In this document: piece after piece, positions 44,814-60,514 of the stretch
Numbering within the stretch: position 1 is the first letter of the stretch
Layout: the number at the start of each line of letters is the position of its first letter
NCBI GenBank assembly: GCA_012965045.1
Contig: DTSZ01000001.1
Coordinates: forward strand, 503,763-567,762
Direction: 5' to 3'
Origin: Candidatus Saccharimonadota bacterium
Lineage (GTDB): Bacteria; Patescibacteriota; Saccharimonadia; Saccharimonadales; DTSZ01
Length of the DNA stretch: 64,000 bases
Program-made: the position numbers and the translations under genes
Notes under the pieces: generated by a model
The model's input: only the letters and a program-made list of their open reading frames with translations
Databases searched by the model: none
Told to the model about the DNA's origin: nothing

Positions 44814-45452
44814 GTGGGCATGCAAATACATTTTGATTCATACTCGGATGACTTTAAAACTAAATTACAACAATGGGCGCCTGAATGCTGGAGCGAGCTT
44901 AGACAAATACTGCCTCAGCTTCCAGAAAATATTACGTTTCATTTTAATAATCAGTTTTTGATCGAAAGCATTGGAGTAGGCGGATTTGCACTCAGTGATA
45001 ATGAAATAGTCCTCGCTGCTGCAGTCGACAAACCGTTTGAAGAATTACAAAAAGAGCTACGAGCAACAATATTTCATGAAGGTTATCACCTGGCCCAAGG
45101 CTTTATTGGTAGCGACAAAGACTATGACATGACAGCCTTGCAAAACGGAGTATGGGAAGGTGCCGCTACGGTATTTGAACGAGAGTTTGCGGGCGTGGAC
45201 CATGTATGGGGCAAATACGACGATGAATTTGTGAAACTATGGCTGCCGCAGGTAATTAGCCTTGGGACTAACTGGCACGAGACTGCGGCGAAATGGAAGT
45301 TTTGGGACCCAGAAACTAATACGTCGAATATTTTATACAGACTTGGCACCTCTATTGTCGATGAAGCTATCAAAAAATCTGGCCTAAGCATATGTGAACT
45401 GGTTGATAAAAGTGCTCAAGAAATAATTGATATTTCTAAGGTAAACACCTGA
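44814..45452 (+). CDS. Putative Zn-dependent protease-like protein (HExxH, DUF2268-like)
   Basis: 212 aa. ATIFHEGYHLAQG. ATG at 44820 is an alternative start. Confidence 0.55.
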   Translation: MGMQIHFDSYSDDFKTKLQQWAPECWSELRQILPQLPENITFHFNNQFLIESIGVGGFALSDNEIVLAAAVDKPFEELQKELRATIFHEGYHLAQGFIGSDKDYDMTALQNGVWEGAATVFEREFAGVDHVWGKYDDEFVKLWLPQVISLGTNWHETAAKWKFWDPETNTSNILYRLGTSIVDEAIKKSGLSICELVDKSAQEIIDISKVNT

Positions 45453-45468
45453 TATACTCAAATAGAAT

Positions 45469-45654
45469 ATGAAAATAAATTTCGATAATCGATATACCCG
45501 TTTGTTTGTTTTATGGCTTTGCGGTGTGGCAATTTTGATGATTCCTTTGTTTTACATCGGCAAAACTATTGATGCACCGATACTTGGTCTACTTGGTTTT
45601 TCTGCACTTGTTTCGGGCATTGCTGTAAACTGGATATCGTGGAAAATATTCTAA
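45469..45654 (+). CDS. Small two-TM membrane protein
   Basis: 61-aa track ORF, strongly hydrophobic. Confidence 0.4.
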   Translation: MKINFDNRYTRLFVLWLCGVAILMIPLFYIGKTIDAPILGLLGFSALVSGIAVNWISWKIF

Positions 45655-45779
45655 AATAACGTCTGTATATATGAAACGTTCTGTGCGAAAACTAATTCAA
45701 AAAACCAAACATATAACCGCTACTCATTTTCATTTATTGGTCGTATTTTTGTTCCGTCAGTAAATAGTGAACTAAATTT

Positions 45780-45787
45780 TGTATAAT
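45780..45787 (+). promoter_or_regulatory. Extended -10 promoter element (TGTATAAT)
   Basis: TG-n-TATAAT lies ~24 nt upstream of ATG 45811. RBS AAAGAGGTG lies between them. Confidence 0.4.
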
Positions 45788-45810
45788 ACGTACATAAAGA
45801 GGTGTTTTAT

Positions 45811-46017
45811 ATGGCGAAAAAACGTAACAAAAAATACCAAGGCAAAGATGCCAAGCTTGAAAAGCCAAAAATTGTGCGATACAAGGTTGAAGACAAATCT
45901 AAGTTTCAACGATGGAAAGAAGACAACAAGCCTGAGTTAATTTTACGTGCAGTGCAGTTGGGCGGTATCGGGTTGTTAGGGTTGGTTATTTGGGGTCTTG
46001 TTTCGTTGATTTTTTAG
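45811..46017 (+). CDS. Small basic protein with C-terminal TM
   Basis: MAKKRNKKYQGK...GGIGLLGLVIWGLVSLIF. The track start at 45802 is GTG and sits inside the RBS. ATG 45811 is preferred. Confidence 0.5.
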   Translation: MAKKRNKKYQGKDAKLEKPKIVRYKVEDKSKFQRWKEDNKPELILRAVQLGGIGLLGLVIWGLVSLIF

Positions 46018-48148
46018 CTGCCCCAGCTGCCGCTAAGCTAAACCTAAATCCGAACGTCGAGCCTTTTCCTTCGGTAGACTCGTAAATCATTGATCCACCT
46101 TGGTCTTTGATGACTTTTTGTGCCATGTATAGCCCTAGTCCCGTGCCATCAGGTCGGGCACTTTTGGCATTTTCTGCACGATAAAATTTTGTAAACAATT
46201 TGTCTTTGGCGTCTTCCGGTACACCGATTCCATTGTCTGTTACTTTAAATTCAAAGCTGTCTTCATTTAAAATTAACTCTACCTCAACACGCCCCTCTGC
46301 CGGTGTGTAGTAAATTGCATTGTCGATCAAATTCATAATTACCTGCCTGGTTTTGGTTTCGTCTAGTTGCGCATCAGGGAAGCGGTCTGGGGTGCGCACA
46401 GTTAATGCCTGGCTTTTAGCCTCGGCTGCACGCTGCAACTGCTCTACCTCACTCTTAATAACCTTCGCAAGGTTTACTGTTGTTTTTTCGATGATAAATT
46501 TACCAGTAGCAATTCGTGAAACATTTAAAAGGTCGGCTATTAAATACACCATTCTCTCTGAACTAGTGTAGGCGAGCTCAATAATATTCTGTTGTTTTTC
46601 TTGTAGAGCCCCGAAGTCACCTTCTTGCAGCATCGAAAGATAGCCCTTTATAGTCGTCAAAGGGGTTCTGAGTTGATGTGAAGCCATAGAAATAAAGTCG
46701 TCTTTGGCTTGGTCGAGCTCTTTAAGTTTTAGATTCTTTAAACGAAGCTCCTGAGTGGCTTTTTCTATTTTTAGCTCAAGTGTTTTTGTGAATTGTTTTA
46801 TTTCTTCATAGCGCAGAGAGTTCTGCAATGCGATCGCTATCTCATCGCTAATAATATCGATAATTTGTAGGTCGCGAGCGCTAAAAGCATTGCCGCTTTT
46901 TTTATCACCAAAAATCAATAACCCTAATATGTTATTGTCTTGGTCCTTTAGCTTAGAAACAACAGCTACATCAGCTTGAATGAATGCATGCTTAATGCCG
47001 TTGACTTGATCCTCGATAAGATCAAGTTCAACTACTTTTTGCTGGTCGGTAAGAAACGTTTTTAAAAGGCCCTGACTTTCGGCATCTGGCTTCACCGCCC
47101 GCAAAGGATACTGCTCTAATTCTAAAAACCTAAGCTTTAACTGCGATTTCACCAGATCTATAACACCACGCTTTAACTCAACTACATCAAGTGACGAAAC
47201 TAAGATATCATTCAATTTGTCGAACAGCTCTTGAGTGTCATAGGCGTCCTGATAGAAAAGTCTATTCGTACACTTATCGAAGAAAGAGCGCAGAGGCTGG
47301 AAAATTACAGCGCTTATAACAGCAAGTGCACCGTAGAGAATGTGGGGTGTTCTTGCAGTGTCATTAGCGTCAAAGAATAGGCTACCCAGAATAATCACTA
47401 CAGCGATGTAGCCACCAAGCAACGTCACTAACAGCAAAGCATATGCAATTGACCTCGCTACAATTGCTCGGATTTCAAGCAAGCGATGCTTAATGATGGC
47501 GTATGCGGCAAAACTCGTAAATATAAGGGTGAAGCCGGGCCCAAAATTTATGAAGAAGGTAGTATTAAATATTAGAACTGCAATCAGATTTGTGGCTAGA
47601 ATTGCACTAAGAGACAGCACTATGCCGAGCAATAAATAGCGCAGTTGCAGGCGGGTCAGTCCTCGGGATTTTCTGAATTTACTAAATAATTTAAACGAGC
47701 CAAAGCCGATTAGTACCACTGTTTGTAGAAGAAAAAGCACTATGCCAGGACCGGGAATTGGCGATACTGTCTCGGTATTTGTAGCATCAATGCCGCTAAA
47801 AACCAGCGGCGTTAATGTCAGGATCGACACAAAAACTGTAAAATACAGAGCCCATTTATACTTAAACGATGTGGCGGTAGTTTTATCCGGGAAAACACTC
47901 AATGTAAAAAAAGCCATAAAGTTCAGCCAGGCTGCAGAAAACATTACTATCCGAATAGTCGTAATTTGACTAAAAATTTCGAGAGACTGAACGGATAAGT
48001 AATTTGCGATGGACCATGCGGCGAATGCAATTGTAAGTCCAAAAAAAGATTTGTTAGTTACACTGCGTGGGTTCTTTATGAAAACACCGTAGCCTAGTAT
48101 TAGGTTTACGAAAGCAGCTATAAAAAGTGATACAAGTTGTATGGTCAT
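45986..48148 (-). CDS. Sensor histidine kinase (multi-TM N-terminal sensor, GAF-like region, HisKA, HATPase_c)
   Basis: 720 aa. H-box FISMASHQLRTPLTTIKGY, N-box NLIDNAIYYT, G-boxes DNGIGV / GTGLGL. Confidence 0.85.
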   Translation of the reverse strand: MTIQLVSLFIAAFVNLILGYGVFIKNPRSVTNKSFFGLTIAFAAWSIANYLSVQSLEIFSQITTIRIVMFSAAWLNFMAFFTLSVFPDKTTATSFKYKWALYFTVFVSILTLTPLVFSGIDATNTETVSPIPGPGIVLFLLQTVVLIGFGSFKLFSKFRKSRGLTRLQLRYLLLGIVLSLSAILATNLIAVLIFNTTFFINFGPGFTLIFTSFAAYAIIKHRLLEIRAIVARSIAYALLLVTLLGGYIAVVIILGSLFFDANDTARTPHILYGALAVISAVIFQPLRSFFDKCTNRLFYQDAYDTQELFDKLNDILVSSLDVVELKRGVIDLVKSQLKLRFLELEQYPLRAVKPDAESQGLLKTFLTDQQKVVELDLIEDQVNGIKHAFIQADVAVVSKLKDQDNNILGLLIFGDKKSGNAFSARDLQIIDIISDEIAIALQNSLRYEEIKQFTKTLELKIEKATQELRLKNLKLKELDQAKDDFISMASHQLRTPLTTIKGYLSMLQEGDFGALQEKQQNIIELAYTSSERMVYLIADLLNVSRIATGKFIIEKTTVNLAKVIKSEVEQLQRAAEAKSQALTVRTPDRFPDAQLDETKTRQVIMNLIDNAIYYTPAEGRVEVELILNEDSFEFKVTDNGIGVPEDAKDKLFTKFYRAENAKSARPDGTGLGLYMAQKVIKDQGGSMIYESTEGKGSTFGFRFSLAAAGAAKKSTKQDPK

Positions 48149-48195
48149 GCTTATGGTTCTTCCCAGTTATCATAGCATGCTGATATGCTAATAGC

Positions 48196-49158
48196 GTGAC
48201 TGAAAAAATTGAAAAACTTATACAACTCGCGCGTCTTGCTCCATCGGTGCATAACACTCAACCGTGGCGCGTATTGGTCAAGGATAATACTTTGAATGTA
48301 TCCGTTCATGAGCCAAGTGTCTTAGATCACGGAGACCCGACGCTACGGGAGCTGTGGTTAAGTGTTGGTTGTTTTATGTACTGTTTAGAGCAAATTAGCC
48401 CAGAATGCGGCCTCCAACTCACGCCGCTGGAAACACAAACTAGCAACCTAAGTTCTGTAGTTTGCACCTACACAATCAAGCAAATTGAGCCCACCGCACC
48501 GAAGATAAGCATACTATTGCAAACCCGCCGTAGTGATCGACGTTTATATGCCAAAGATCCACTTTCGAAAAAAAATAAATCTTTACTACAATCGCTTATT
48601 TGCCCTGAAGGCACGGCTGTTTCAGTCGTGGATGATAAAGTCATTCTCGCTAAAGCTGCTAGCCTTACAGCCACCGGACTTAGAATGGCCTTTTCCATGC
48701 CTGACTTTCGAAAAGAACTGTCAGATTTAATTATCGCTACTAATAGTCGGCAAAATACCGGCCTCTACTACTACGCCCTCAACCGTACTAGAGTAGGTGG
48801 GTGGATGGAAAAGCTCTCTATCCGAACAGGGATCAATACCCAAAAACTCGTCCAAAATGACTATGATCGAATCCTCAACAGTTCGGCTTTGGTGTTTATT
48901 TTAAGTGATGGTGACACCCCGAAATATTGGACTTCAGCCGGCAAGACATATATGGCAGCTAGTATCAAAATAGAGGATCTCGGTCTCGCCCAGTCAACTA
49001 CAGCTGCACTGGTAGAAGCTGGAGATTTACATGAAGAAATTGAAAATTTGATCGGAACCAAAAATCGAATTCAGGCAGTAATTCGTATAGGAACACCTCG
49101 ACATAACGGTAGACCTAAAAGGACTCCTCGTTTAAGTGTCAGCGAAATTTCTACATAG
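48196..49158 (+). CDS. Two-lobed nitroreductase-family (Acg-like) protein
   Basis: 320 aa. LARLAPSVHNTQPW. The size fits a duplicated nitroreductase fold. Confidence 0.65.
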   Translation: MTEKIEKLIQLARLAPSVHNTQPWRVLVKDNTLNVSVHEPSVLDHGDPTLRELWLSVGCFMYCLEQISPECGLQLTPLETQTSNLSSVVCTYTIKQIEPTAPKISILLQTRRSDRRLYAKDPLSKKNKSLLQSLICPEGTAVSVVDDKVILAKAASLTATGLRMAFSMPDFRKELSDLIIATNSRQNTGLYYYALNRTRVGGWMEKLSIRTGINTQKLVQNDYDRILNSSALVFILSDGDTPKYWTSAGKTYMAASIKIEDLGLAQSTTAALVEAGDLHEEIENLIGTKNRIQAVIRIGTPRHNGRPKRTPRLSVSEIST

Positions 49159-50395
49159 AATCAAGTGTGTCCTGGACCAGCTTAGTGTGTTTCTTGTGCT
49201 CTTTTCTATTCTTGCGCGAAGTAGCACCTGCGAGGAGTAGATCATCGAGATTGATCGAATACCTTCCAGTTTTTAGTGGTTGCCCAAGACAGATCATGCG
49301 GACAGCGTAAGCAAGAACGCCACCAGCTCGTATAGCTGTCACCCCAAGCTGTGGCTGAGTTACAAGTTTAGTGCCAATTTTGAGTAATGACTGCTGCATT
49401 CGGAGTGGTACATTTTTTGTATTGATAATACTGGTTGCGAACTTTAACCATTCGCGCTGTGTCATGTCTTTTCTTTCAAGCACTTTCTCAATATCACCAG
49501 CAAGGCCATGAAATAGCGGTAGATTTTCGTCAGTATCGAATCGTTCAACATCTAGCATAACTGAATCACCTAAATCAGTTACCATAAGCACAGGAATGCC
49601 TCGGCGACGAGCCTCAATACGCAAACGAATTTTTGTCTCTAAATCATCTACCTCATCGACAACCACATCTAAACTCCATGGATCTTCGAAAAATGATTTG
49701 AGATTTTTTTCTGTAATGCTTGGGTAAATAATAAGCTCTTGGTATGGATTCATTTCATAGAGTTGTCGCGCAATCACTTTTGACTTAACTTCTCCAATAT
49801 CATGGACAGCGGCACGAATGCGATTAAGATTAGAACCACTAATAACAGCCCCATCTGCAATTTTAAGCTTATTAGATGTACCTTCGATAGCAATTGAGGT
49901 TGCCGCATTGCTGCCAACACTCATTCCCAGACACCCTACGCGGATATCGCTGAGTTGTTTCTGTTCATCTTGAGTTATTAAGTCCTTGTTTCTAATTGTC
50001 CTCATTTCGCCAAATAGTTCTTTGTTTAAAATATGTATGAGCTTCCCATTCCATGGAAAATACACCCAACTACCTTTTTTCCAGGAATCGACGCCATCAT
50101 AGTGCTTATCGACATATTCTTTAACTGATGCTCGTTTCACTTGGATATTCGCTCGATAAACCTGAGGATTTCTACTGATCACAAGCTCTGCAAGCTGCTC
50201 ATCGTAGTTATCATGAATAGATGTTATAGGCGTGGATGCCACAAATTTTAACAACTTTTTTTGATTTGCTTTGTCTGACACATCAAAGACGATCGGCTCA
50301 CATGATGAAGTGTTTAAGGCTGATGCTGCAGCCTTTTGCAGCTCAGACGGCCATTCTTGATAATAATCAGTTTGAGTTATTTTTTGACTACCCAC
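49151..50395 (-). CDS. ThiF/MoeB/E1-like adenylyltransferase-family protein (Rv1355c N-domain-like)
   Basis: 414 aa. IRVGCLGMSVGSNAATSIAIEG...IADGAVISGSNLNRI (Rossmann/ThiF pattern), VVDEVDDLETKIRL. Confidence 0.65.
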   Translation of the reverse strand: MGSQKITQTDYYQEWPSELQKAAASALNTSSCEPIVFDVSDKANQKKLLKFVASTPITSIHDNYDEQLAELVISRNPQVYRANIQVKRASVKEYVDKHYDGVDSWKKGSWVYFPWNGKLIHILNKELFGEMRTIRNKDLITQDEQKQLSDIRVGCLGMSVGSNAATSIAIEGTSNKLKIADGAVISGSNLNRIRAAVHDIGEVKSKVIARQLYEMNPYQELIIYPSITEKNLKSFFEDPWSLDVVVDEVDDLETKIRLRIEARRRGIPVLMVTDLGDSVMLDVERFDTDENLPLFHGLAGDIEKVLERKDMTQREWLKFATSIINTKNVPLRMQQSLLKIGTKLVTQPQLGVTAIRAGGVLAYAVRMICLGQPLKTGRYSINLDDLLLAGATSRKNRKEHKKHTKLVQDTLDSM

Positions 50396-50397
50396 TA

Positions 50398-51837
50398 CTA
50401 CTCACCTCTCTTTAGCCAGCTATGTTTCACTGTACCGGAAAAAAAATCCGAATCACCATACGGTTTTAAAATAATATGCAGGTCAGCTTTATTACCGATC
50501 GCAGTTCTTAATTTCCTATATTCAGCATTTAGTTCTACTAACCGATCAGTAACTGCACGCTTAATTAAAACCGATGTTGATTCGTTAGGGGTAGAATTCG
50601 GGGCTAGCTCTACGACCACCTCTAAGTATTGATCTTGTTGAGGTGTGGTTTTTGTTATCATGCTAAATTTTCCGGTGGTTTGCCGTGCAATTGTATTGTC
50701 GAGCAAACCAGCTTTTATATTTTCTGGGTAAATATTGACTGCATAGATAGTAGCTGTAAAGTCTTTTCGGCCATTAATTGTTACATAAGGAAGATCTGAC
50801 CAATCTTGAATATGACGCGGACTAATTTCGTTGAGTCGTGGCCCTAGCTCGGTCGCTAGCTCTTCGAAGTCAGTAAAAACCTTTCCTTTATCATGAATAT
50901 TGTATCGAATAAGCGGAATTCCAGAATTAGTCGTAAACACTAATTCTTCGTTCACCTCCTCTATAAAACGCTTCTGGGGGTAAAAATTTACTAATGTCGG
51001 TTGAATATCAGTGCCGAATACTTGTCTGCTTGTCTGTAAGTCACTTGCAACTGCTTGTCGAATGTTTACCGACAACGGTGTTTCGTGCCCGATAATCGCC
51101 GCATCTGCGGTGCCATATATATTCACACTAAACTTTTGGATATTAGTTGCTCCAACCAGCTCTGCCATATGCGATCTCCAGTCTTCACTAAAGGATTCAC
51201 CTGCAAATAAAAATTTTATTACATGATCGGTCCACTGTATGTGTTCTTGACCTTCCAAAACAATATCTCGAACAAACGGTGGATAACCAGCAATAATTAT
51301 CTGGTCAAAGTTGTGCGCTAATTTACTAATTGCGCGGATTGCATCTTTTTTGTCGATCCCAGGAGTGATAACCATAAGGTCATTGGAGTTTTTTTCTGCT
51401 ATTTTCATTGCTGAAAATAAAGTAAAAGATCCAGCAATCCACGTTCCCATTGAAAAACAAATTACAACCAGAGTACTTTTTTGATGAATATCTAGTATTT
51501 TTGTAAAGATCTGCTCATGAATCTCGGCTCCCTCTGCATGATGCTCCGCTCCACGTGGCCAAAAAAACGGCTCCCCTGAAGAACCCGAACTAACAGATAT
51601 TATTTGGTTAGTGAAAAGCTCACCGTTCCAGCACAAATCTTTTAAAGGATATTGGCGTAAATAATTATCTTTATCAACTGGTGGGACGTTTTTGAAATCT
51701 TTAAATGTCTTAATTTTTTGCGGGACTATACTCTCCCTTGAAAGAAAATCTTTGTATGCGGGTATATTGTGGGCCGCTTTGTGGAATAACTCGACGGCCT
51801 TGGCGGAAGCGATTGTATAACGTGTATTTGTTTTCAT
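50398..51837 (-). CDS. PaaK/CapK-like adenylate-forming enzyme
   Basis: 479 aa. SVSSGSSGEPFFWPRG (SSGxxGxP adenylation motif), YGTADA, overall PaaK-like length. Confidence 0.55.
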   Translation of the reverse strand: MKTNTRYTIASAKAVELFHKAAHNIPAYKDFLSRESIVPQKIKTFKDFKNVPPVDKDNYLRQYPLKDLCWNGELFTNQIISVSSGSSGEPFFWPRGAEHHAEGAEIHEQIFTKILDIHQKSTLVVICFSMGTWIAGSFTLFSAMKIAEKNSNDLMVITPGIDKKDAIRAISKLAHNFDQIIIAGYPPFVRDIVLEGQEHIQWTDHVIKFLFAGESFSEDWRSHMAELVGATNIQKFSVNIYGTADAAIIGHETPLSVNIRQAVASDLQTSRQVFGTDIQPTLVNFYPQKRFIEEVNEELVFTTNSGIPLIRYNIHDKGKVFTDFEELATELGPRLNEISPRHIQDWSDLPYVTINGRKDFTATIYAVNIYPENIKAGLLDNTIARQTTGKFSMITKTTPQQDQYLEVVVELAPNSTPNESTSVLIKRAVTDRLVELNAEYRKLRTAIGNKADLHIILKPYGDSDFFSGTVKHSWLKRGE

Positions 51838-51915
51838 GCCAGTGTTAAACTTATGTTTAAAGTATAGTAAAAACTAGCACAATACAATTAAAGCTATATA
51901 ATCAAAGCTATAATT

Positions 51916-52287
51916 ATGACTAAAATCGCTATAATCGAAGATGATATCGCAATAGTGCAGATGTATTTAATGAAGTTCGAGTCCGAAGGGTTCGAAGTCT
52001 ATACGGCTGGCGATGGCGAACAAGGTTTAACGCTTATAAAAGACAAAAAACCAGATATTGTTTTGCTGGACCTTATGATGCCAGTTATGCGCGGTGACGA
52101 AATGCTGAGCCAGCTCCGAGCAGAAGACTGGGGCAAGGATGTTCCGGTGATCGTCCTTACGAATATGGGCGAAAGTGAAGCACCTGATTCAATCAAGAAA
52201 AACGGCGTATCTGGGTTTATTGTTAAGGCCCATATGACCCCTAAAGAGGTAGCAAATCTCGTTAAAGAAAAACTAAATATTACCTAG
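51916..52287 (+). CDS. Single-domain response regulator (CheY-like receiver)
   Basis: 123 aa. IEDD..., PDIVLLDLMMP (phospho-acceptor Asp), VLTNMG, KA. Confidence 0.85.
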   Translation: MTKIAIIEDDIAIVQMYLMKFESEGFEVYTAGDGEQGLTLIKDKKPDIVLLDLMMPVMRGDEMLSQLRAEDWGKDVPVIVLTNMGESEAPDSIKKNGVSGFIVKAHMTPKEVANLVKEKLNIT

Positions 52288-52288
52288 T

Positions 52289-52696
52289 ATGGCAGACGAT
52301 AAAGTTCAAAAACTTGAAAACTCTTCACCTGGCGGACTGAAAGGCTTGATCGGTTTGATACTGCTTGGGATTTTTGTCTTTATAATTTATTTTGCTTTTG
52401 TAAGTTCAAACGAACTACCGGCGGAAGAGTCACTAACACGTAGCCAGGCAGAAATCGCAGCAATCGCCGAGTTCAAAGAACTAACTACTGAAGAAACCAC
52501 TGCCACTATAGAAACAAGCGAAGAACAGACCTGGCCAGATGGTTGTCTTGGACTGCCAGATGTTGACCAGATATGTACCCAGGCGCTGGTTGAGGGATAC
52601 AGGATAACAGTAGTAAGCGATGAACATACAGCAGTATTTAGAACTAATTTAACTGGCTCAAACATAGCGCTGGAGTCCTTCGACGAAGCAAACTAA
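52289..52696 (+). CDS. Membrane-anchored hypothetical protein
   Basis: 135 aa. TM segment LIGLILLGIFVFIIYFAFV. Tightly coupled to its neighbours. Confidence 0.5.
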   Translation: MADDKVQKLENSSPGGLKGLIGLILLGIFVFIIYFAFVSSNELPAEESLTRSQAEIAAIAEFKELTTEETTATIETSEEQTWPDGCLGLPDVDQICTQALVEGYRITVVSDEHTAVFRTNLTGSNIALESFDEAN

Positions 52697-53346
52697 TGGA
52701 ACTTGCGTTTCTGCGAAAAAGCCAAGAAGCCGAGTCAATTTGGAGTTTCTATTTTACAAAACCGCCGGCGCTGCAATTTGAAGCTGGTGATTACGTAGAC
52801 GTAGAGATCGAAACCAGCTCAGTCCTTGGCGACCGTCGGTGGCTAACCATATCGTCTAGTCCAACCGCCGACCATATTCGGTTTAGTCTTAAAGTTCCGG
52901 TTTCTACAAGCGAATTTAAGCGTGCATTAATGAACCTCAAAAAAGACGACACCATTCAGGTATCGCCGCCAATTGGTACCTTCCATCTACCTAGACGTAA
53001 AGACGCACCGATTGTTTGGGTAGCCGGCGGCATTGGTATAACCCCATTTTTATCACAATCCCAATGGTTAATTGACACTAATCAAAATCGAACTATTGAA
53101 TGCCTTTATGTAGCAAAACCGAACGAACATGTTTTTGTCGATCAGTTAGTTAAAGTTAGTGAATTGACAACTACCACAGAACGACCAGCGCAGTTAGACC
53201 ACCTTTATACTAATCTAGTAAACAAACAAATATTTTTAAGCGGACCCCAGCCATTTTGCATGCATTACTATGATCAGCTCCAAAAAATGGGGCTATCTCG
53301 GCAGCAATTACACCTTGATTATTTTCCAGGTTACCAAACTATCTAA
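52696..53346 (+). CDS. FNR-like FAD/NAD(P)-binding oxidoreductase
   Basis: 216 aa. RWLTISSSP (RxYS-like FAD motif) and VWVAGGIGITPFLS (NAD motif). Confidence 0.7.
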   Translation: MELAFLRKSQEAESIWSFYFTKPPALQFEAGDYVDVEIETSSVLGDRRWLTISSSPTADHIRFSLKVPVSTSEFKRALMNLKKDDTIQVSPPIGTFHLPRRKDAPIVWVAGGIGITPFLSQSQWLIDTNQNRTIECLYVAKPNEHVFVDQLVKVSELTTTTERPAQLDHLYTNLVNKQIFLSGPQPFCMHYYDQLQKMGLSRQQLHLDYFPGYQTI

Positions 53347-53363
53347 CTTGGTATACTAAGCGA

Positions 53364-54323
53364 ATGAACATTGCAGTATTACGCGGCGGCCACCATAGCG
53401 AGCACGACGTTTCTATCAAATCTGGACAGACAATCATAGATGCTTTAGTAAGCAACAACACTGTCATCGATGTAGTTATTTCAAAAGATCTCAAAAGCTG
53501 GAATATTGATAATCAAAAACTCAGCGCCACTGAAGCCCTGCAACTGTTAACAAAGCAATGCGACATAGTCGTGCCAGTGCTTCATGGGCCATTCGGAGAA
53601 GACGGCACCATTCAAGGGGCGCTGGAGGCTGCTGGTTTGCCATATATCGGCTCTGGTGTACGGGCGAGCGCAATCGCCATGGACAAATTCACCACTAACC
53701 ATATGTTTTCTAGCTTAAACGAATTTAATATCCCAGATTTCTGCGCCATCAATGCCGCCGATCCATTAGGATCGTATCAAAATAGTATGGAGTCGATTGG
53801 GTTTCCATTAGTACTTAAGCCAGCACGCGGTGGCTCTTCGTTTGAGACCCAGTTTGTAAATACTGCTGCCGAGGCTGCGGAATTTTTGAAAGACGCCAAA
53901 AGTGATTTTTTTATTGCGCAAAAAGCAATTAGTGGCATGGAATTAACCTGTGGAGTTGTAGAAATTAGCGGCAAAGTAACAGCCCTCGAGGTCATTGAAA
54001 TTGTTCCGCCACATGGGTCGTTTTTTGACTACGATGCAAAATATACGCCAGGGGCAAGCCAAGAAATAATCCCCGCTCGTATAGAAAAAAACACTGCAAA
54101 CAGTGTTAAGCAACTGTCAGTAGCTGCTCACAAATATCTTGGCTGCAGCGGCATCACCAGGAGTGATTTTATTGTCGATGACCAGGACGTCGTGTGGTAC
54201 TTAGAAACAAACACAGCTCCAGGTATGACGGCAACTAGCTTGGTGCCCCAAGAACTTGCATATGCAAACATTGAGCTAGCTGACACAGTACAACAACTAT
54301 GCGCTGAAAGGTTGGCACAATGA
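53364..54323 (+). CDS. ddl: D-alanine--D-alanine ligase
   Basis: 319 aa. VLHGPFGEDGTIQGALEAAGLPYIGSG, ATP-grasp region, ETNTAPGMT. Confidence 0.9.
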   Translation: MNIAVLRGGHHSEHDVSIKSGQTIIDALVSNNTVIDVVISKDLKSWNIDNQKLSATEALQLLTKQCDIVVPVLHGPFGEDGTIQGALEAAGLPYIGSGVRASAIAMDKFTTNHMFSSLNEFNIPDFCAINAADPLGSYQNSMESIGFPLVLKPARGGSSFETQFVNTAAEAAEFLKDAKSDFFIAQKAISGMELTCGVVEISGKVTALEVIEIVPPHGSFFDYDAKYTPGASQEIIPARIEKNTANSVKQLSVAAHKYLGCSGITRSDFIVDDQDVVWYLETNTAPGMTATSLVPQELAYANIELADTVQQLCAERLAQ

Positions 54324-58126: not shown

Positions 58127-60514
58127 ATGATTACTACTACCGTGAAGCGATATCTTAATAAACTGGTTAAACTATTAACCGACACCTACCGTGACCCTCG
58201 ATTTATTATTACGAGTTTATTTGCGCTCGTTGGGTTTTTAATAACTACTGCACAGGTTGTAGAAGCTGATGAACTCGATAATTTTGAGAAGTATATATTT
58301 GAACTGATCAACCAACTGGGCGATGGGTTATATTCATTTTTTTATATAATTACTCAGTTTGGCTCATTATTATCACTAGTGGTCTGGGCGGCTGCTATAG
58401 CTTTTTATTTTAGAAAACGAGCAGCGCTAGCCGCTGTTGTATCAGGTTTTTTAGGTTGGCTAATCGCAAAGCCTTTAAAAGCGTATATCGGGCGAGCCAG
58501 ACCAGGCGAAATTCTTGACAGCTTGAATATCTTTACAGATGAAAAATTTAGTGGATTGGGATACCCTTCGGGTCACGCCACCTTATCTGCCGCTGTTGCA
58601 ACAGCAGTTTTTTTGTACCTTAAGCCAAAAAATCGCAAGTACTTGCTTATATTTGTAGCGCTAATCGGCATAAGCCGAGTTTATCTCGGTGGCCACTTCC
58701 CTCGTGACATTATAGGTGGCTGGTTCCTTGGTGTTCTCGCAGGCTGTATTGGTTCATTTTTAATCGGCAGCTCTAGAGACGCTGCCTCTAACAAGTACAT
58801 CAAAAATGTATTAAATAAGAATGGTATAAAGGCTGCAGCAATTAAAGAGTTCAGCGGGGATGCTCGTGGGTCAAGACCTATTTTTATTACACTTGAAGAT
58901 AAAACTAAACTGTTTGGCAAAATAGTAACTAGCCAAGAGCAGGCTGCCGACTGGTTGTTTAAAACGTTTCGTTTTTTTAAATACAAGAACTTCAAAGACG
59001 AGGACCCCTACCTTAACCCAAAACGACACACCGAACATGAAGCGTTCGTAGCAGAATGGGCTCGTAAATTTGGCGTCAACACACCTCAAGTTATTAAGAT
59101 CGTTCATGTCAAAGATAGCCAGTGGTTATTAGTACAAGACATGGTAGACGCTGAGCCACTCGACAAGCAAAAAAAAGTAAGTCAAAAAACTTTAGAGCAA
59201 ACCTGGCGACAAATTTTAAAACTTCATGATGCAGATATTGCTCACCGTGATTTACGAGCAAGCAACGTACTTGTCGATAAAGACAAGCAGCCATGGATTA
59301 TAGACTTTGGTTTTGCAGAAGTGGCTGGTGATGAGATGAGGAAAAGAGTTGATATTGCCGAATTCTTAACAACCACCAGTATGCTATTTGGTGTTAAAAA
59401 ATCTCTTGCTGCTGCTCTGGCAGTTTTAGAGAAACAAAAACTGCAAGAAGCTGCTCCGTATGTTCAGCCGGCAGCTCTCAGTGGAGCCACTACTAGTGCT
59501 ATTAAAAACGACAAGCAAACTTTCGAGCAACTACAAACTGCCTTAAAAGACATGCATGATAATCAGGAAGTTTTTGAACATCAAGCCCTATTACGAATAA
59601 CAAAGAAACAAATTATAAACCTGGCCTTGGTCGCAGTGTTATTCTTCATAATTATTCCTCAATTTAATGTATTTAAAGACTCGTTCGCATCGCTATCTGA
59701 TATAAATTTTATTTACATACCAGCGGTCATAGTAGCTTCCATGACAACATATATCTTTGCAGCAGGCACCATAACTACCATTCCCTCTGTACCTGTTAGC
59801 TACCGCAAGGCAGTTATGGCGCAGTTGGCCGGTTCGTATGCAAGTAAGTTAGCGCCTCGTGGGCTTGGTTCGAGTGCGGTTAATTTACAATTTTTGCGCA
59901 AACAAGGCATGTCGCTGTCGCGTGCTACGTCTGTTATGCTAACCGACAAATTTCTTGGCTTCTTGCTGTTTGTTATTCCGTTTGGTTCGGTTGTAGTAAT
60001 TAGCGGTCAATCATCACTTTCACAGCTACTACCGGATATGAAAACGTACTACGTTTATATAGCGCTGGGGATAATTTTGGCCGGCATTACTGTATTGGTC
60101 GCAAAACGAACCTGGCAAGAAAAAATTATTCAATCGCTAAAAAAGAGCTACTTTGAAATAAAGCAACTTGCCTATAGACCGCGATCGTTGCTGCTTGCTG
60201 CTTTATTTTCTCTCGGGGTAACGGTAAGCTACCTCCTCACTTTATATTTGTGTTTCACAGCATTACAAGTCGACATATCGATACTACAAATAATCGTCAC
60301 GTATGCTGCCGCTACCTTCGCGAGTTCGGTCACACCGACGCCAGGTGGCTTAGGTGGTTTCGAAGCTGGATTAATTGCAGCAATGGTAAGTTTTGGCGTG
60401 GAACAGTCTGCGGCTTACTCGGTGGCTATCCTCTATCGTTTAGCTACCTTTTGGCTACCTATTCCTTTAGCTCTAGCCGCTTTTAAGTTTGCTAGGTCTA
60501 AAGACATTATTTGA
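58127..60514 (+). CDS. Three-domain membrane protein: PAP2 lipid phosphatase, protein/lipid kinase-like domain, flippase-like (LPG_synthase_TM/UPF0104) domain
   Basis: 795 aa. PAP2 motifs KPLKAYIGRARP / PSGH / SRVYLGGHFPRD. Kinase motifs HRDLRASNVLV and IDFGFAE. C-terminal multi-TM region with TPTPGGLGGFEAGLIAAM. Confidence 0.75.
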   Translation: MITTTVKRYLNKLVKLLTDTYRDPRFIITSLFALVGFLITTAQVVEADELDNFEKYIFELINQLGDGLYSFFYIITQFGSLLSLVVWAAAIAFYFRKRAALAAVVSGFLGWLIAKPLKAYIGRARPGEILDSLNIFTDEKFSGLGYPSGHATLSAAVATAVFLYLKPKNRKYLLIFVALIGISRVYLGGHFPRDIIGGWFLGVLAGCIGSFLIGSSRDAASNKYIKNVLNKNGIKAAAIKEFSGDARGSRPIFITLEDKTKLFGKIVTSQEQAADWLFKTFRFFKYKNFKDEDPYLNPKRHTEHEAFVAEWARKFGVNTPQVIKIVHVKDSQWLLVQDMVDAEPLDKQKKVSQKTLEQTWRQILKLHDADIAHRDLRASNVLVDKDKQPWIIDFGFAEVAGDEMRKRVDIAEFLTTTSMLFGVKKSLAAALAVLEKQKLQEAAPYVQPAALSGATTSAIKNDKQTFEQLQTALKDMHDNQEVFEHQALLRITKKQIINLALVAVLFFIIIPQFNVFKDSFASLSDINFIYIPAVIVASMTTYIFAAGTITTIPSVPVSYRKAVMAQLAGSYASKLAPRGLGSSAVNLQFLRKQGMSLSRATSVMLTDKFLGFLLFVIPFGSVVVISGQSSLSQLLPDMKTYYVYIALGIILAGITVLVAKRTWQEKIIQSLKKSYFEIKQLAYRPRSLLLAALFSLGVTVSYLLTLYLCFTALQVDISILQIIVTYAAATFASSVTPTPGGLGGFEAGLIAAMVSFGVEQSAAYSVAILYRLATFWLPIPLALAAFKFARSKDII

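Follow-up and report, generated by a model that had tools for sequence, protein, structure and literature searches.

In a 64,000-nucleotide stretch of DNA from a Candidatus Saccharimonadota bacterium (contig DTSZ01000001.1, positions 503,763–567,762; the whole stretch is called the window here), we examined three tightly packed genes encoding a PaaK-like adenylate-forming enzyme, a ThiF-like protein and a nitroreductase-like flavin-dependent oxidase (FDO), together with a multi-pass histidine kinase and a receiver-only response regulator encoded on either side of them. We found that this gene set is kept together across many lineages of the candidate phyla radiation (CPR). The module may be a variant of the OxzAB, TyzACB and TrzAS oxazolone pathways, with a biosynthetic core of acid activation and coupling, ring closure and desaturation in some form, a reading that we hold to be evenly balanced. 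Chemistry of the oxazolone-synthetase kind is already known for ThiF and FDO. New with respect to the literature searched are the replacement of the acyltransferase by a PaaK-like enzyme, which is supported by natural fusions, the spread over many reduced-genome CPR lineages, and the almost obligatory association with a HisKA_7TM kinase, itself uncharacterised, and a CheY-like receiver; the search found no paper on this cluster in CPR bacteria.

Organization and conservation of the gene cluster

The FDO gene lies at 48196–49158 on the plus strand and encodes a predicted desaturase of 320 aa. It converges with the ThiF-like gene (49151–50395, minus strand) in an overlap of 8 nt (49151–49158), and the 414-aa product of the latter is a predicted adenylating cyclodehydratase, or oxazolone ring former, of the TrzS (Rv1355c) clade. 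The PaaK-like gene (50398–51837, minus strand) ends 2 nt before the start of the ThiF-like gene (gap 50396–50397) and encodes a distant PaaK-type adenylate-forming (ANL) enzyme of 479 aa with the motif SSGSSGEPFFWPRG at residues 83–96. These coordinates, the gap, the overlap and the motif agree with an earlier sequence-based annotation of the locus (the original prediction). The kinase gene (45986–48148, minus strand) is divergent from the FDO gene over 47 nt, and the receiver gene (51916–52287, plus strand) is divergent from the PaaK-like gene over 78 nt. The cluster in the window is the minimal, five-gene form.

When one genome per species (185,579 species) was scanned with a PaaK-like alignment, at least 446 relatives were obtained, and the best 80 of these 446 loci were compared by tblastn and clustering of open reading frames (ORFs). 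Of the 80 loci, 35 had a ThiF-like gene next to the PaaK-like gene, and 28 of these 35 also had the FDO gene. The 35 loci came from Saccharibacteria and from metagenome-assembled genomes labelled Parcubacteria, Andersen-, Nomura-, Roizman-, Berkel-, Magasanik-, Niyogi-, Nealson- and Paceibacteria, spanning at least nine named CPR groups and at least four gene orders (PaaK–ThiF–FDO(reverse)–kinase, FDO–ThiF–PaaK–kinase, ThiF–PaaK–FDO–kinase and PaaK–ThiF–FDO–kinase). The order is shuffled yet the set is kept together, which is a signature of functional linkage, and the arrangement is far beyond chance. Whether the triad co-occurs elsewhere had been named as the point on which its significance would turn; dozens of CPR genomes have the three genes together, and fused forms exist as well.

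The fusions emerged from a HMMER search with the ThiF-like protein, which gave 897 representatives at E ≤ 1e-30. The nearest matches were three Saccharibacteria-type representatives, and the next relatives (33–42% identity) were stand-alone proteins mixed with ThiF–FDO fusions of about 750 aa. PaaK-like and ThiF parts are joined in P0252, whose PaaK-like part is 38% identical to the window protein (E 4e-111), and in P0257, where a Glu/Leu/Phe/Val-type (ELFV) dehydrogenase is added. ThiF is fused to an aromatic amino-acid ammonia-lyase in P0273, to FDO and an alpha/beta hydrolase in P0300, and to an N-terminal GNAT acyltransferase in P0302 and P0344, the latter also with FDO. Since the N-terminal partner in the ThiF clade is either GNAT or PaaK-like, the PaaK-like enzyme is the positional counterpart of the acyltransferase. 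The fused genes were seen in the contexts FDO–[dehydrogenase–PaaK–ThiF]–hydrolase–HisKA_7TM kinase, [PaaK–ThiF]–hydrolase–kinase–receiver, [ThiF–lyase]–PaaK-like–FDO–kinase and receiver/dehydrogenase–PaaK-like–[ThiF–FDO]–(hydrolase)–kinase–receiver. Another relative, P0254, has an extra C-terminal domain of about 290 aa (residues ~770–1061) with no Pfam match, which might be acyltransferase-like.

No acyltransferase was found among the Pfam-scanned window genes (37883–60514) or in 11 pipeline-annotated related loci, and no acyltransferase-type extra gene family recurred in the other loci (L001–L080). Where oxazolone systems have an adjacent N-acyltransferase (OxzA, TyzA, TrzA or NasY), these clusters have the PaaK-like gene in its position.

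A 7TM histidine kinase is the most constant partner

The kinase consists of a multi-pass N-terminal HisKA_7TM region (PF16927, residues 8–226, E 3e-12), an unassigned middle region, and HisKA (PF00512) and HATPase_c (PF02518) domains. Of 37 CPR-type loci, 36 have an orthologue of it no more than 6 kb from the PaaK-like gene. Among the 35 loci with PaaK-like and ThiF genes, a HisKA_7TM kinase was present in 34, compared with 28 for the oxidase, and in the 35th the contig stops 1 kb past the PaaK-like gene, yet still shows the first 244 residues of the kinase. In seven loci (L008, L011, L013, L030, L039, L041 and L046) the order is PaaK-like–ThiF–kinase without the oxidase, and on three further CPR contigs (L034 369–3975, L035 8001–11267 and L036 1868–5369) the PaaK-like gene is followed by a multi-transmembrane kinase with no ThiF or FDO gene. 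No other gene is tied to the PaaK-like gene as tightly as that of the kinase. The original prediction had two-component genes bracketing the cluster; their flanking positions are correct, but the kinase does more than bracket it.

Whether they belong to the long form of about 720 aa or to the short one of about 540 aa, all of the kinases have 6–9 hydrophobic segments in their first ~290 residues, and the transmembrane region is itself homologous between distant loci (25–31% identity). A word-indexed search with the transmembrane domain gave eight proteins, of which two genomic contexts served as a reciprocal test; both look-ups, started from relatives of this domain, led back to the same cluster. 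In one of the loci (L081) the kinase gene is operonic, with gaps of 2–22 nt. As in autoinducer synthase–receptor pairs, the synthase genes conservedly adjoin a multi-pass membrane kinase. A literature search on HisKA_7TM function found nothing.

The response regulator is CheY-like (123 aa; PF00072, E 6e-21) and has no output domain. Its homologues in Saccharibacteria loci are 53–66% identical and are divergent from the PaaK-like gene or at most two genes away, and those in other CPR loci are 31–39% identical and directly follow the kinase. Such a regulator is a frequent companion of the kinase, and in every locus where it was seen it was receiver-only.

The predicted cyclase and oxidase resemble a split TrzS

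The Pfam ThiF domain (PF00899) is restricted to residues 138–271 of the ThiF-like protein, with about 135 residues upstream of it. The NCBIfam model NF005901 (Rv1355c family) aligns with residues 28–402 (model 7–354 of 722, E 1.6e-87), and because the alignment spans this region the N-terminal extension is of the Rv1355c type, as had been proposed. The FDO aligns with the second half of the same model (375–647, E 4e-16, 58.4 bits), which bears out the description of the pair as a split form of the Rv1355c ThiF–nitroreductase fusion; the single fusion polypeptide that characterises the Rv1355c equivalog is absent from the window, where the genes are separate. The ThiF-like protein is 34–40% identical to P0254 (751 bits) and P0344 (810 bits), both of which score above the Rv1355c-family cutoff.

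Rv1355c had been described as a protein of unknown function, which is out of date: it is TrzS, an N-acyl tryptazolone (oxazolone) synthetase (Kleetz et al., PMC12856293) that performs ATP-dependent cyclisation and then O2-dependent desaturation of N-acyl-Trp (PMC12856293), and it is related to TyzB/TyzC, two separate proteins that carry out the corresponding reactions (PMC10404671). Two of the three enzymes therefore have a direct, characterised chemical precedent. Tyrazolones are made by OxzB, a ThiF–nitroreductase fusion, with the N-acyltransferase OxzA (De Rond et al., bioRxiv 10.1101/2020.06.11.147165), and in Mycobacterium tuberculosis TyzA (acyltransferase), TyzB (ThiF) and TyzC (FDO) make C12:0-tyrazolone (Grigg et al., PMC10404671). 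Producers of N-acyl dehydrotyrosine have the same triad, made up of an N-acyl amino acid synthase, ThiF and nitroreductase (PMC12479983). The hallmark first enzyme of all described oxazolone systems is an N-acyltransferase (PMC12856293, PMC10404671, PMC12479983, bioRxiv 10.1101/2020.06.11.147165).

An AlphaFold (AF2) model of the ThiF-like protein (predicted local distance difference test score, pLDDT, 89.6) matched AclA, ThiF, MoeB, MccB and TcdA in Foldseek. The best structural match, AclA of Tenacibaculum discolor (PDB 9egb/9egc), is a 2025 structure 'in complex with substrate', and its substrate may inform the chemistry of the ThiF-like enzyme. With a profile of 38 ThiF-like orthologues, the best solved sequence relative was TcdA (E 4.6e-12), a tRNA N6-threonylcarbamoyladenosine (t6A) dehydratase that itself forms a ring of the oxazolone type in an ATP-dependent dehydration (PMC12596934). 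In the ThiF-like alignment the nucleotide-binding residues G157, S159, G161, S162, D181, N189, N191, R192, K204, D247, D250 and D251 are invariant, the Asp motif (D247–D251) having been located through TcdA/ThiF alignments, and there is no invariant Cys. This combination fits direct cyclisation, and not thioester transfer to a protein. PRK08223, which is probably the TyzB-type short ThiF model, was matched only at E 3.5e-15. On sequence, the protein groups with the small-molecule TrzS clade and is a predicted ATP-dependent cyclase of the TrzS/TyzB/OxzB kind.

The FDO aligned over its full length with the Acg-family FMN oxidoreductase model NF047509 (residues 8–318 to model 2–318, E 7.6e-45) and also matched PF00881; its best solved relative is Acg (PDB 2ymv, E 9e-7). 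Residues A15, P16, S17, N20, Q22, P23, W24, R111, R115 and R312 are invariant in 29 cluster-linked homologues, and the oxidase is fused to ThiF in the close relatives P0243, P0246 and P0251. By homology it is a distant member or sister group of the Acg family, and its place beside ThiF, here with overlapping ends, is that predicted for a nitroreductase-superfamily flavin oxidase of an oxazolone pathway.

The pairing of an E1-like protein with a flavin dehydrogenase had been likened to the azole-forming machinery of ribosomally synthesized and post-translationally modified peptides (RiPPs), SagC/SagB. In a peptide- or protein-modifying system the E1-like protein would activate the C-terminus of a precursor or ubiquitin-like protein and the nitroreductase would act as an azoline dehydrogenase, on the model of SagB/SagC, McbB/McbC or MccB or of a ThiS/MoaD-like carrier. 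The ThiF-fold matches do include MccB, PaaA and E1 enzymes, and the PADLOC defence models gave weak E1–E2 matches over the Rossmann region of the ThiF-like protein (best E 4e-7), with nothing for the FDO or the PaaK-like enzyme. However, the match to the TrzS family (E 1e-87) stands against 1e-7 to 1e-15 for E1 and RiPP families, a lead of at least 70 orders of magnitude. The YcaO and precursor genes of SagBCD and McbBCD systems are missing: no YcaO turned up among the Pfam-scanned window genes (37883–60514) or in 11 related loci with pipeline annotation, no precursor-like or GG-ending small ORF is conserved in the 35 clusters and the window, and the intergenic spaces measure only 47 and 78 nt. 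Nor did we find the GG-ending carrier or an invariant Cys that would point to ThiF–ThiS, MoeB–MoaD or Bil-type defence systems. The RiPP analogy thus gained no support, and a peptide-modifying system is very improbable.

A PaaK-like enzyme stands in the acyltransferase position

The PaaK-like protein has no Pfam match, and it hits the PaaK model TIGR02155 at E 1.7e-9 with 36.8 bits, short of the equivalog cutoff of 646. Its AlphaFold model (pLDDT 90.2) matched, over the whole chain, PaaK1 (2y27; E 5.5e-22), PaaK2, BT_0428 (template-modelling score 0.68) and 2-hydroxyisobutyryl-CoA ligase (HCL). In 51 homologues the ANL motif residues S83, S84, G85 and G88 (A3), D245 (A5), R311, Y312, D316 and G318 (A7), G356 (A8) and K471 (A10) are invariant and G242 (A5) is near-invariant. 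The protein accordingly has the two domains and the A3, A5, A7, A8 and A10 motifs of the PaaK-type ANL fold, and with this the three family calls of the original prediction (PaaK-like by TIGR02155 and fold, ThiF/Rv1355c by NF005901, Acg-type nitroreductase by NF047509) are all borne out; its broader idea, that ATP-dependent activation of a carboxylate is combined with oxidation in one pathway, is likewise supported. The PaaK-like family is without any characterised member, and a tblastn search against plasmids gave two matches with no usable annotation beneath them.

Public annotations of phenylacetate-CoA ligase and tRNA threonylcarbamoyladenosine dehydratase would fit a chance or catabolic neighbourhood, in which the genes serve the degradation of phenylacetate or another aromatic acid, or in which a TcdA-like ThiF protein forms cyclic t6A in tRNA; TcdA, as noted, ranks first among the solved sequence relatives in the ThiF profile search. 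Against this, no paa genes occur near the PaaK-like gene among the Pfam-scanned neighbours in the window, and its PaaK score lies far under the cutoff. TcdA has no N-terminal extension, and the ThiF-like protein reaches 32.8 bits against a TcdA cutoff of 304. A set of genes that is conserved with shuffled order and fused in several lineages also speaks against chance, and we consider such a neighbourhood scarcely credible.

Outside CPR, a monophyletic clade of PaaK-like genes that stand alone, 37–41% identical to the window protein, is found in Chloroflexia, cyanobacteria, methanotrophs (Methylococcaceae), Streptosporangiaceae, Minicystis and Nitrospirota (loci L014, L020, L022, L026, L032, L033, L038, L043–L045, L055–L059, L061, L063, L064, L067–L071, L073–L075 and L077–L080). 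These non-CPR loci have no conserved neighbour beyond family-level synteny and gave no functional clue.

Genes near the CPR copies suggest which acids are used. In 8 of the 80 loci the PaaK-like gene has an ELFV dehydrogenase as a neighbour (one being a distant copy in a non-CPR locus), and such an enzyme occurs again in the receiver/dehydrogenase–PaaK-like–[ThiF–FDO] contexts. The three dehydrogenases tested matched the tryptophan dehydrogenase ScyB best (259–288 bits), with glutamate dehydrogenases far behind. A class I/II aminotransferase was found in 6 loci, a prephenate dehydratase in 3 and an aromatic ammonia-lyase in 5, the best match of the last being phenylalanine ammonia-lyase or the flexirubin tyrosine ammonia-lyase (TAL) FlxA (616 bits). 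All four enzymes turn an amino acid or prephenate into an acid without an alpha-amino group (arylpyruvate or another 2-oxo acid, or cinnamate/coumarate). Because they yield deaminated acids, an acid of this kind is the inferred substrate for activation by the PaaK-like enzyme, in analogy to the role of FlxY downstream of FlxA in flexirubin synthesis. CPR loci also have methyltransferases, an alpha/beta hydrolase, a short-chain dehydrogenase/reductase (SDR)-like protein and, in a single case, an M19 dipeptidase. The M19 gene, for a membrane dipeptidase, lies at L016 9511–10452 between the PaaK-like gene and the kinase; M19 is the renal dehydropeptidase family, which would fit the processing of a ring-opened N-acyl dehydroamino acid.

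A proposed pathway and its possible signalling role

Based on these data we propose a pathway of four steps. In step 1 the PaaK-like enzyme would use ATP to activate a carboxylic acid, probably of the aryl or 2-oxo type and derived from an amino acid that is aromatic or hydrophobic, and would link this acid to an amino acid through the latter's amino group to give an N-acyl amino acid, standing in for the acyl-CoA-dependent N-acyltransferase of all described oxazolone clusters. Its position, the fusions and the fact that no acyltransferase was seen are the grounds for letting the PaaK-like enzyme supply the N-acyl amino acid, an assignment for which we see roughly equal prospects of being right and wrong. 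Direct amide formation is a possibility that we hold tentatively, and the rest of step 1 would be covered by a route via a thioester; several ANL enzymes (GH3, McbA, CfaL) form amides directly. In step 2 the ThiF-like enzyme would adenylate the free carboxylate of the N-acyl amino acid so that the amide oxygen closes a 5(4H)-oxazolone ring, and in step 3 the FDO would insert the C-alpha/C-beta double bond. Steps 2 and 3 are probable, given homology of the cyclase to TrzS/TyzB and of the oxidase to the FDO domain of TrzS and to TyzC. In step 4 the product, or its ring-opened N-acyl dehydroamino acid, would be the ligand of the adjacent 7TM kinase, which would phosphorylate the receiver-only regulator, so that the whole would resemble an autoinducer synthase–receptor pair. 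This last step, suggested by gene linkage, is put forward only tentatively. The output through the CheY-like receiver would be non-transcriptional and could concern, for example, pili, attachment or host interaction.

The PaaK-like enzyme could instead be an ordinary acyl-CoA ligase, with an acyltransferase encoded elsewhere making the N-acyl amino acid and ThiF and FDO acting as TyzBC. Its closest solved structures are all CoA ligases (PaaK1/2, BT_0428 and HCL), and a TAL with a CoA ligase is the FlxA/FlxY logic of flexirubin synthesis, FlxY being a weak match to the PaaK-like protein (E 0.0018). But no acyltransferase was found in the annotated loci examined, the PaaK-like part is fused directly to ThiF where canonical systems fuse GNAT, and direct amide formation is, as said, common among ANL enzymes. 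A plain CoA ligase is therefore a rather improbable account.

Several observations weigh against the proposed pathway. Identity between the PaaK-like protein and any solved enzyme is only about 16%, and sequence cannot separate an amide synthetase from a CoA ligase. The occurrence of the family alone in non-CPR taxa implies that it has a function independent of ThiF and FDO. The ThiF-like protein scores 294.5 bits on NF005901 and does not reach the equivalog cutoff of 476 bits, and the FDO, at 153.8 bits on NF047509, does not reach the cutoff of 199. A tblastn search of the 64-kb window found no ELFV dehydrogenase, aminotransferase, ammonia-lyase, prephenate dehydratase, SDR or methyltransferase. 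The known FDOs of the oxazolone pathway require O2, and many CPR bacteria inhabit anoxic water. Because FDO is missing from seven loci and ThiF from the three with PaaK-like and kinase genes, an unsaturated oxazolone cannot be the universal end product; the product of the PaaK-like enzyme itself may matter to the kinase. Finally, the kinase linkage is also to be expected if the kinase only controls the pathway or answers envelope stress.

Another reading keeps the same oxazolone-type biosynthesis but makes the product an effector or protectant, for example one that acts against microbes or on a host, a lipoamino acid active on membranes, or a compound protecting against redox or other stress. 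The kinase and receiver would then only respond to a cue from outside or from the envelope, by switching the pathway or some downstream behaviour. Antimicrobial activity is possible for N-acyl tyrosine derivatives, and oxidative-stress phenotypes have been linked to the tyz locus. Tailoring genes vary by lineage (methyltransferases, alpha/beta hydrolase, M19 dipeptidase) as they do in secondary-metabolite clusters, and kinase linkage by itself would fit either direction of information flow. On the other hand, regulators that are receiver-only in every locus make direct transcriptional control of the cluster unlikely. The membrane domain of the kinase is co-conserved with the enzymes over very large distances and kept when FDO or ThiF is lost, which looks more like a receptor–ligand pair than generic regulation. 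We judge a non-signal product unlikely. A dedicated communication system conserved widely among CPR bacteria, in which an aryl-acyl oxazolone, or its N-acyl (dehydro)amino acid, is made without acyl-CoA by an amide-forming PaaK-like ligase, a TrzS-like cyclase and an Acg-like oxidase and is sensed in the membrane by the HisKA_7TM kinase, is itself a doubtful though conceivable outcome.

Intergenic sequences and neighbouring genes

Two short intergenic repeats were read from the sequence: an inverted repeat, TAGCAT-N6-ATGCTA, in the 47 nt between the divergent kinase and FDO genes (48149–48195), and a tandem AAAGCTATA(T)AAT repeat, in two copies, in the 78 nt between the divergent PaaK-like and receiver genes (51838–51915). 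Both may be candidate shared control sites. A promoter and terminator scan of 45400–53400 gave a signal no better than in shuffled sequence, and an Rfam scan of the window found two tRNAs only. The surroundings of the cluster are housekeeping genes (Y-family polymerase, Ddl, Mur ligase, FolD and pyruvate kinase).

Genes at 52289–52696 and 52696–53346 (both plus strand), 3′ of the receiver, encode proteins of 135 and 216 aa. The 135-aa protein is membrane-anchored and has no family match, and the 216-aa protein has weak ferredoxin-reductase-like FAD/NAD-binding matches (E 0.013 and 0.02) and a GGIGITP motif; neither gene recurs beside the cluster in other loci. Further along the window (58127–60514, plus strand), a 795-aa membrane protein combines a PAP2 phosphatase (residues 100–208), a protein-kinase-like region (301–403) and an MprF-type LPG_synthase_TM domain (496–780), an unusual fusion for a lipid-scavenging episymbiont.

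Discussion

One of the closest known relatives of the module is TrzAS (Rv1356c/Rv1355c) of mycobacteria and Rhodococcus (PMC12856293), which shares the NCBIfam cyclase family with its N-terminal extension, the flavin oxidase partner and, by prediction, a chemistry in which an N-acylated amino acid is cyclised at the expense of ATP and then desaturated. TrzS, however, is one 722-aa protein, whereas the window has separate convergent genes and, in place of a TrzA-type acyltransferase, the PaaK-like enzyme. The window oxidase also scores higher on the Acg-type model than on the FDO half of TrzS, and its module is linked to a 7TM kinase and receiver whereas trzAS lies next to genes for cyclic di-GMP. 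The cyclase and oxidase are split as in TyzB/TyzC of the TyzACB system (Rv2336–Rv2338c), which with OxzAB has aromatic amino acid substrates, a small-molecule product and a suspected role in signalling; in contrast, TyzA and OxzA are N-acyl amino acid synthases dependent on acyl-CoA or acyl carrier protein, and no kinase linkage is described for them (PMC10404671; bioRxiv 10.1101/2020.06.11.147165). In the NasY–ThiF–nitroreductase clusters for stieleriacines, thalassotalic and kyonggic acids (PMC12479983), ThiF and nitroreductase likewise tailor an N-acyl aromatic amino acid and methyltransferases are frequent accessories, as in some CPR loci. Their isolated products are ring-opened dehydroamino acids, which may also apply to CPR clusters with an alpha/beta hydrolase, but they use a fatty-acyl-using N-acyl amino acid synthase and have neither an adenylate-forming ligase nor a kinase.

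Compared with the PaaK ligases and BT_0428 (PDB 2y27, 2y4o, 4r1l), the PaaK-like enzyme shares the two-domain fold from end to end and every adenylation motif, as well as the C-terminal catalytic Lys; beyond its low identity, it differs in a P-loop (SSGSSGEP) without the usual Lys and in the lack of a paa catabolic context. TcdA resembles the ThiF-like protein in sequence profile and as an oxazolone-type ring former, but acts on tRNA, has about 270 aa without the extension and shows no oxidase or ligase linkage. CqsA–CqsS and LuxM–LuxN are pairs of an autoinducer synthase and a membrane histidine-kinase receptor. Like them, the module has synthesis genes adjoining a multi-pass kinase without a periplasmic domain, in a pairing retained in evolution. 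CqsS and LuxN differ in being hybrid kinases with a phosphorelay to a transcription factor, whereas the window kinase is non-hybrid and its sole regulator is receiver-only.

Oxazolone synthesis by ThiF–nitroreductase enzymes was discovered only in 2021–2025. Signalling was suspected by the authors of that work, as oxazolones are labile like many signals and trzAS adjoins cyclic di-GMP genes (PMC12856293; bioRxiv 10.1101/2020.06.11.147165). The CPR lineages that carry the variant have almost no secondary metabolism, and our findings point to a rare conserved small-molecule pathway in host-dependent, hard-to-study organisms. They also give a testable hypothesis about oxazolones as signals and about the ligand of the HisKA_7TM sensor. 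If the signalling role were true, the HisKA_7TM sensor family would gain its first ligand, bacterial oxazolones their first physiological role and ultra-small episymbionts their first autoinducer-like circuit.

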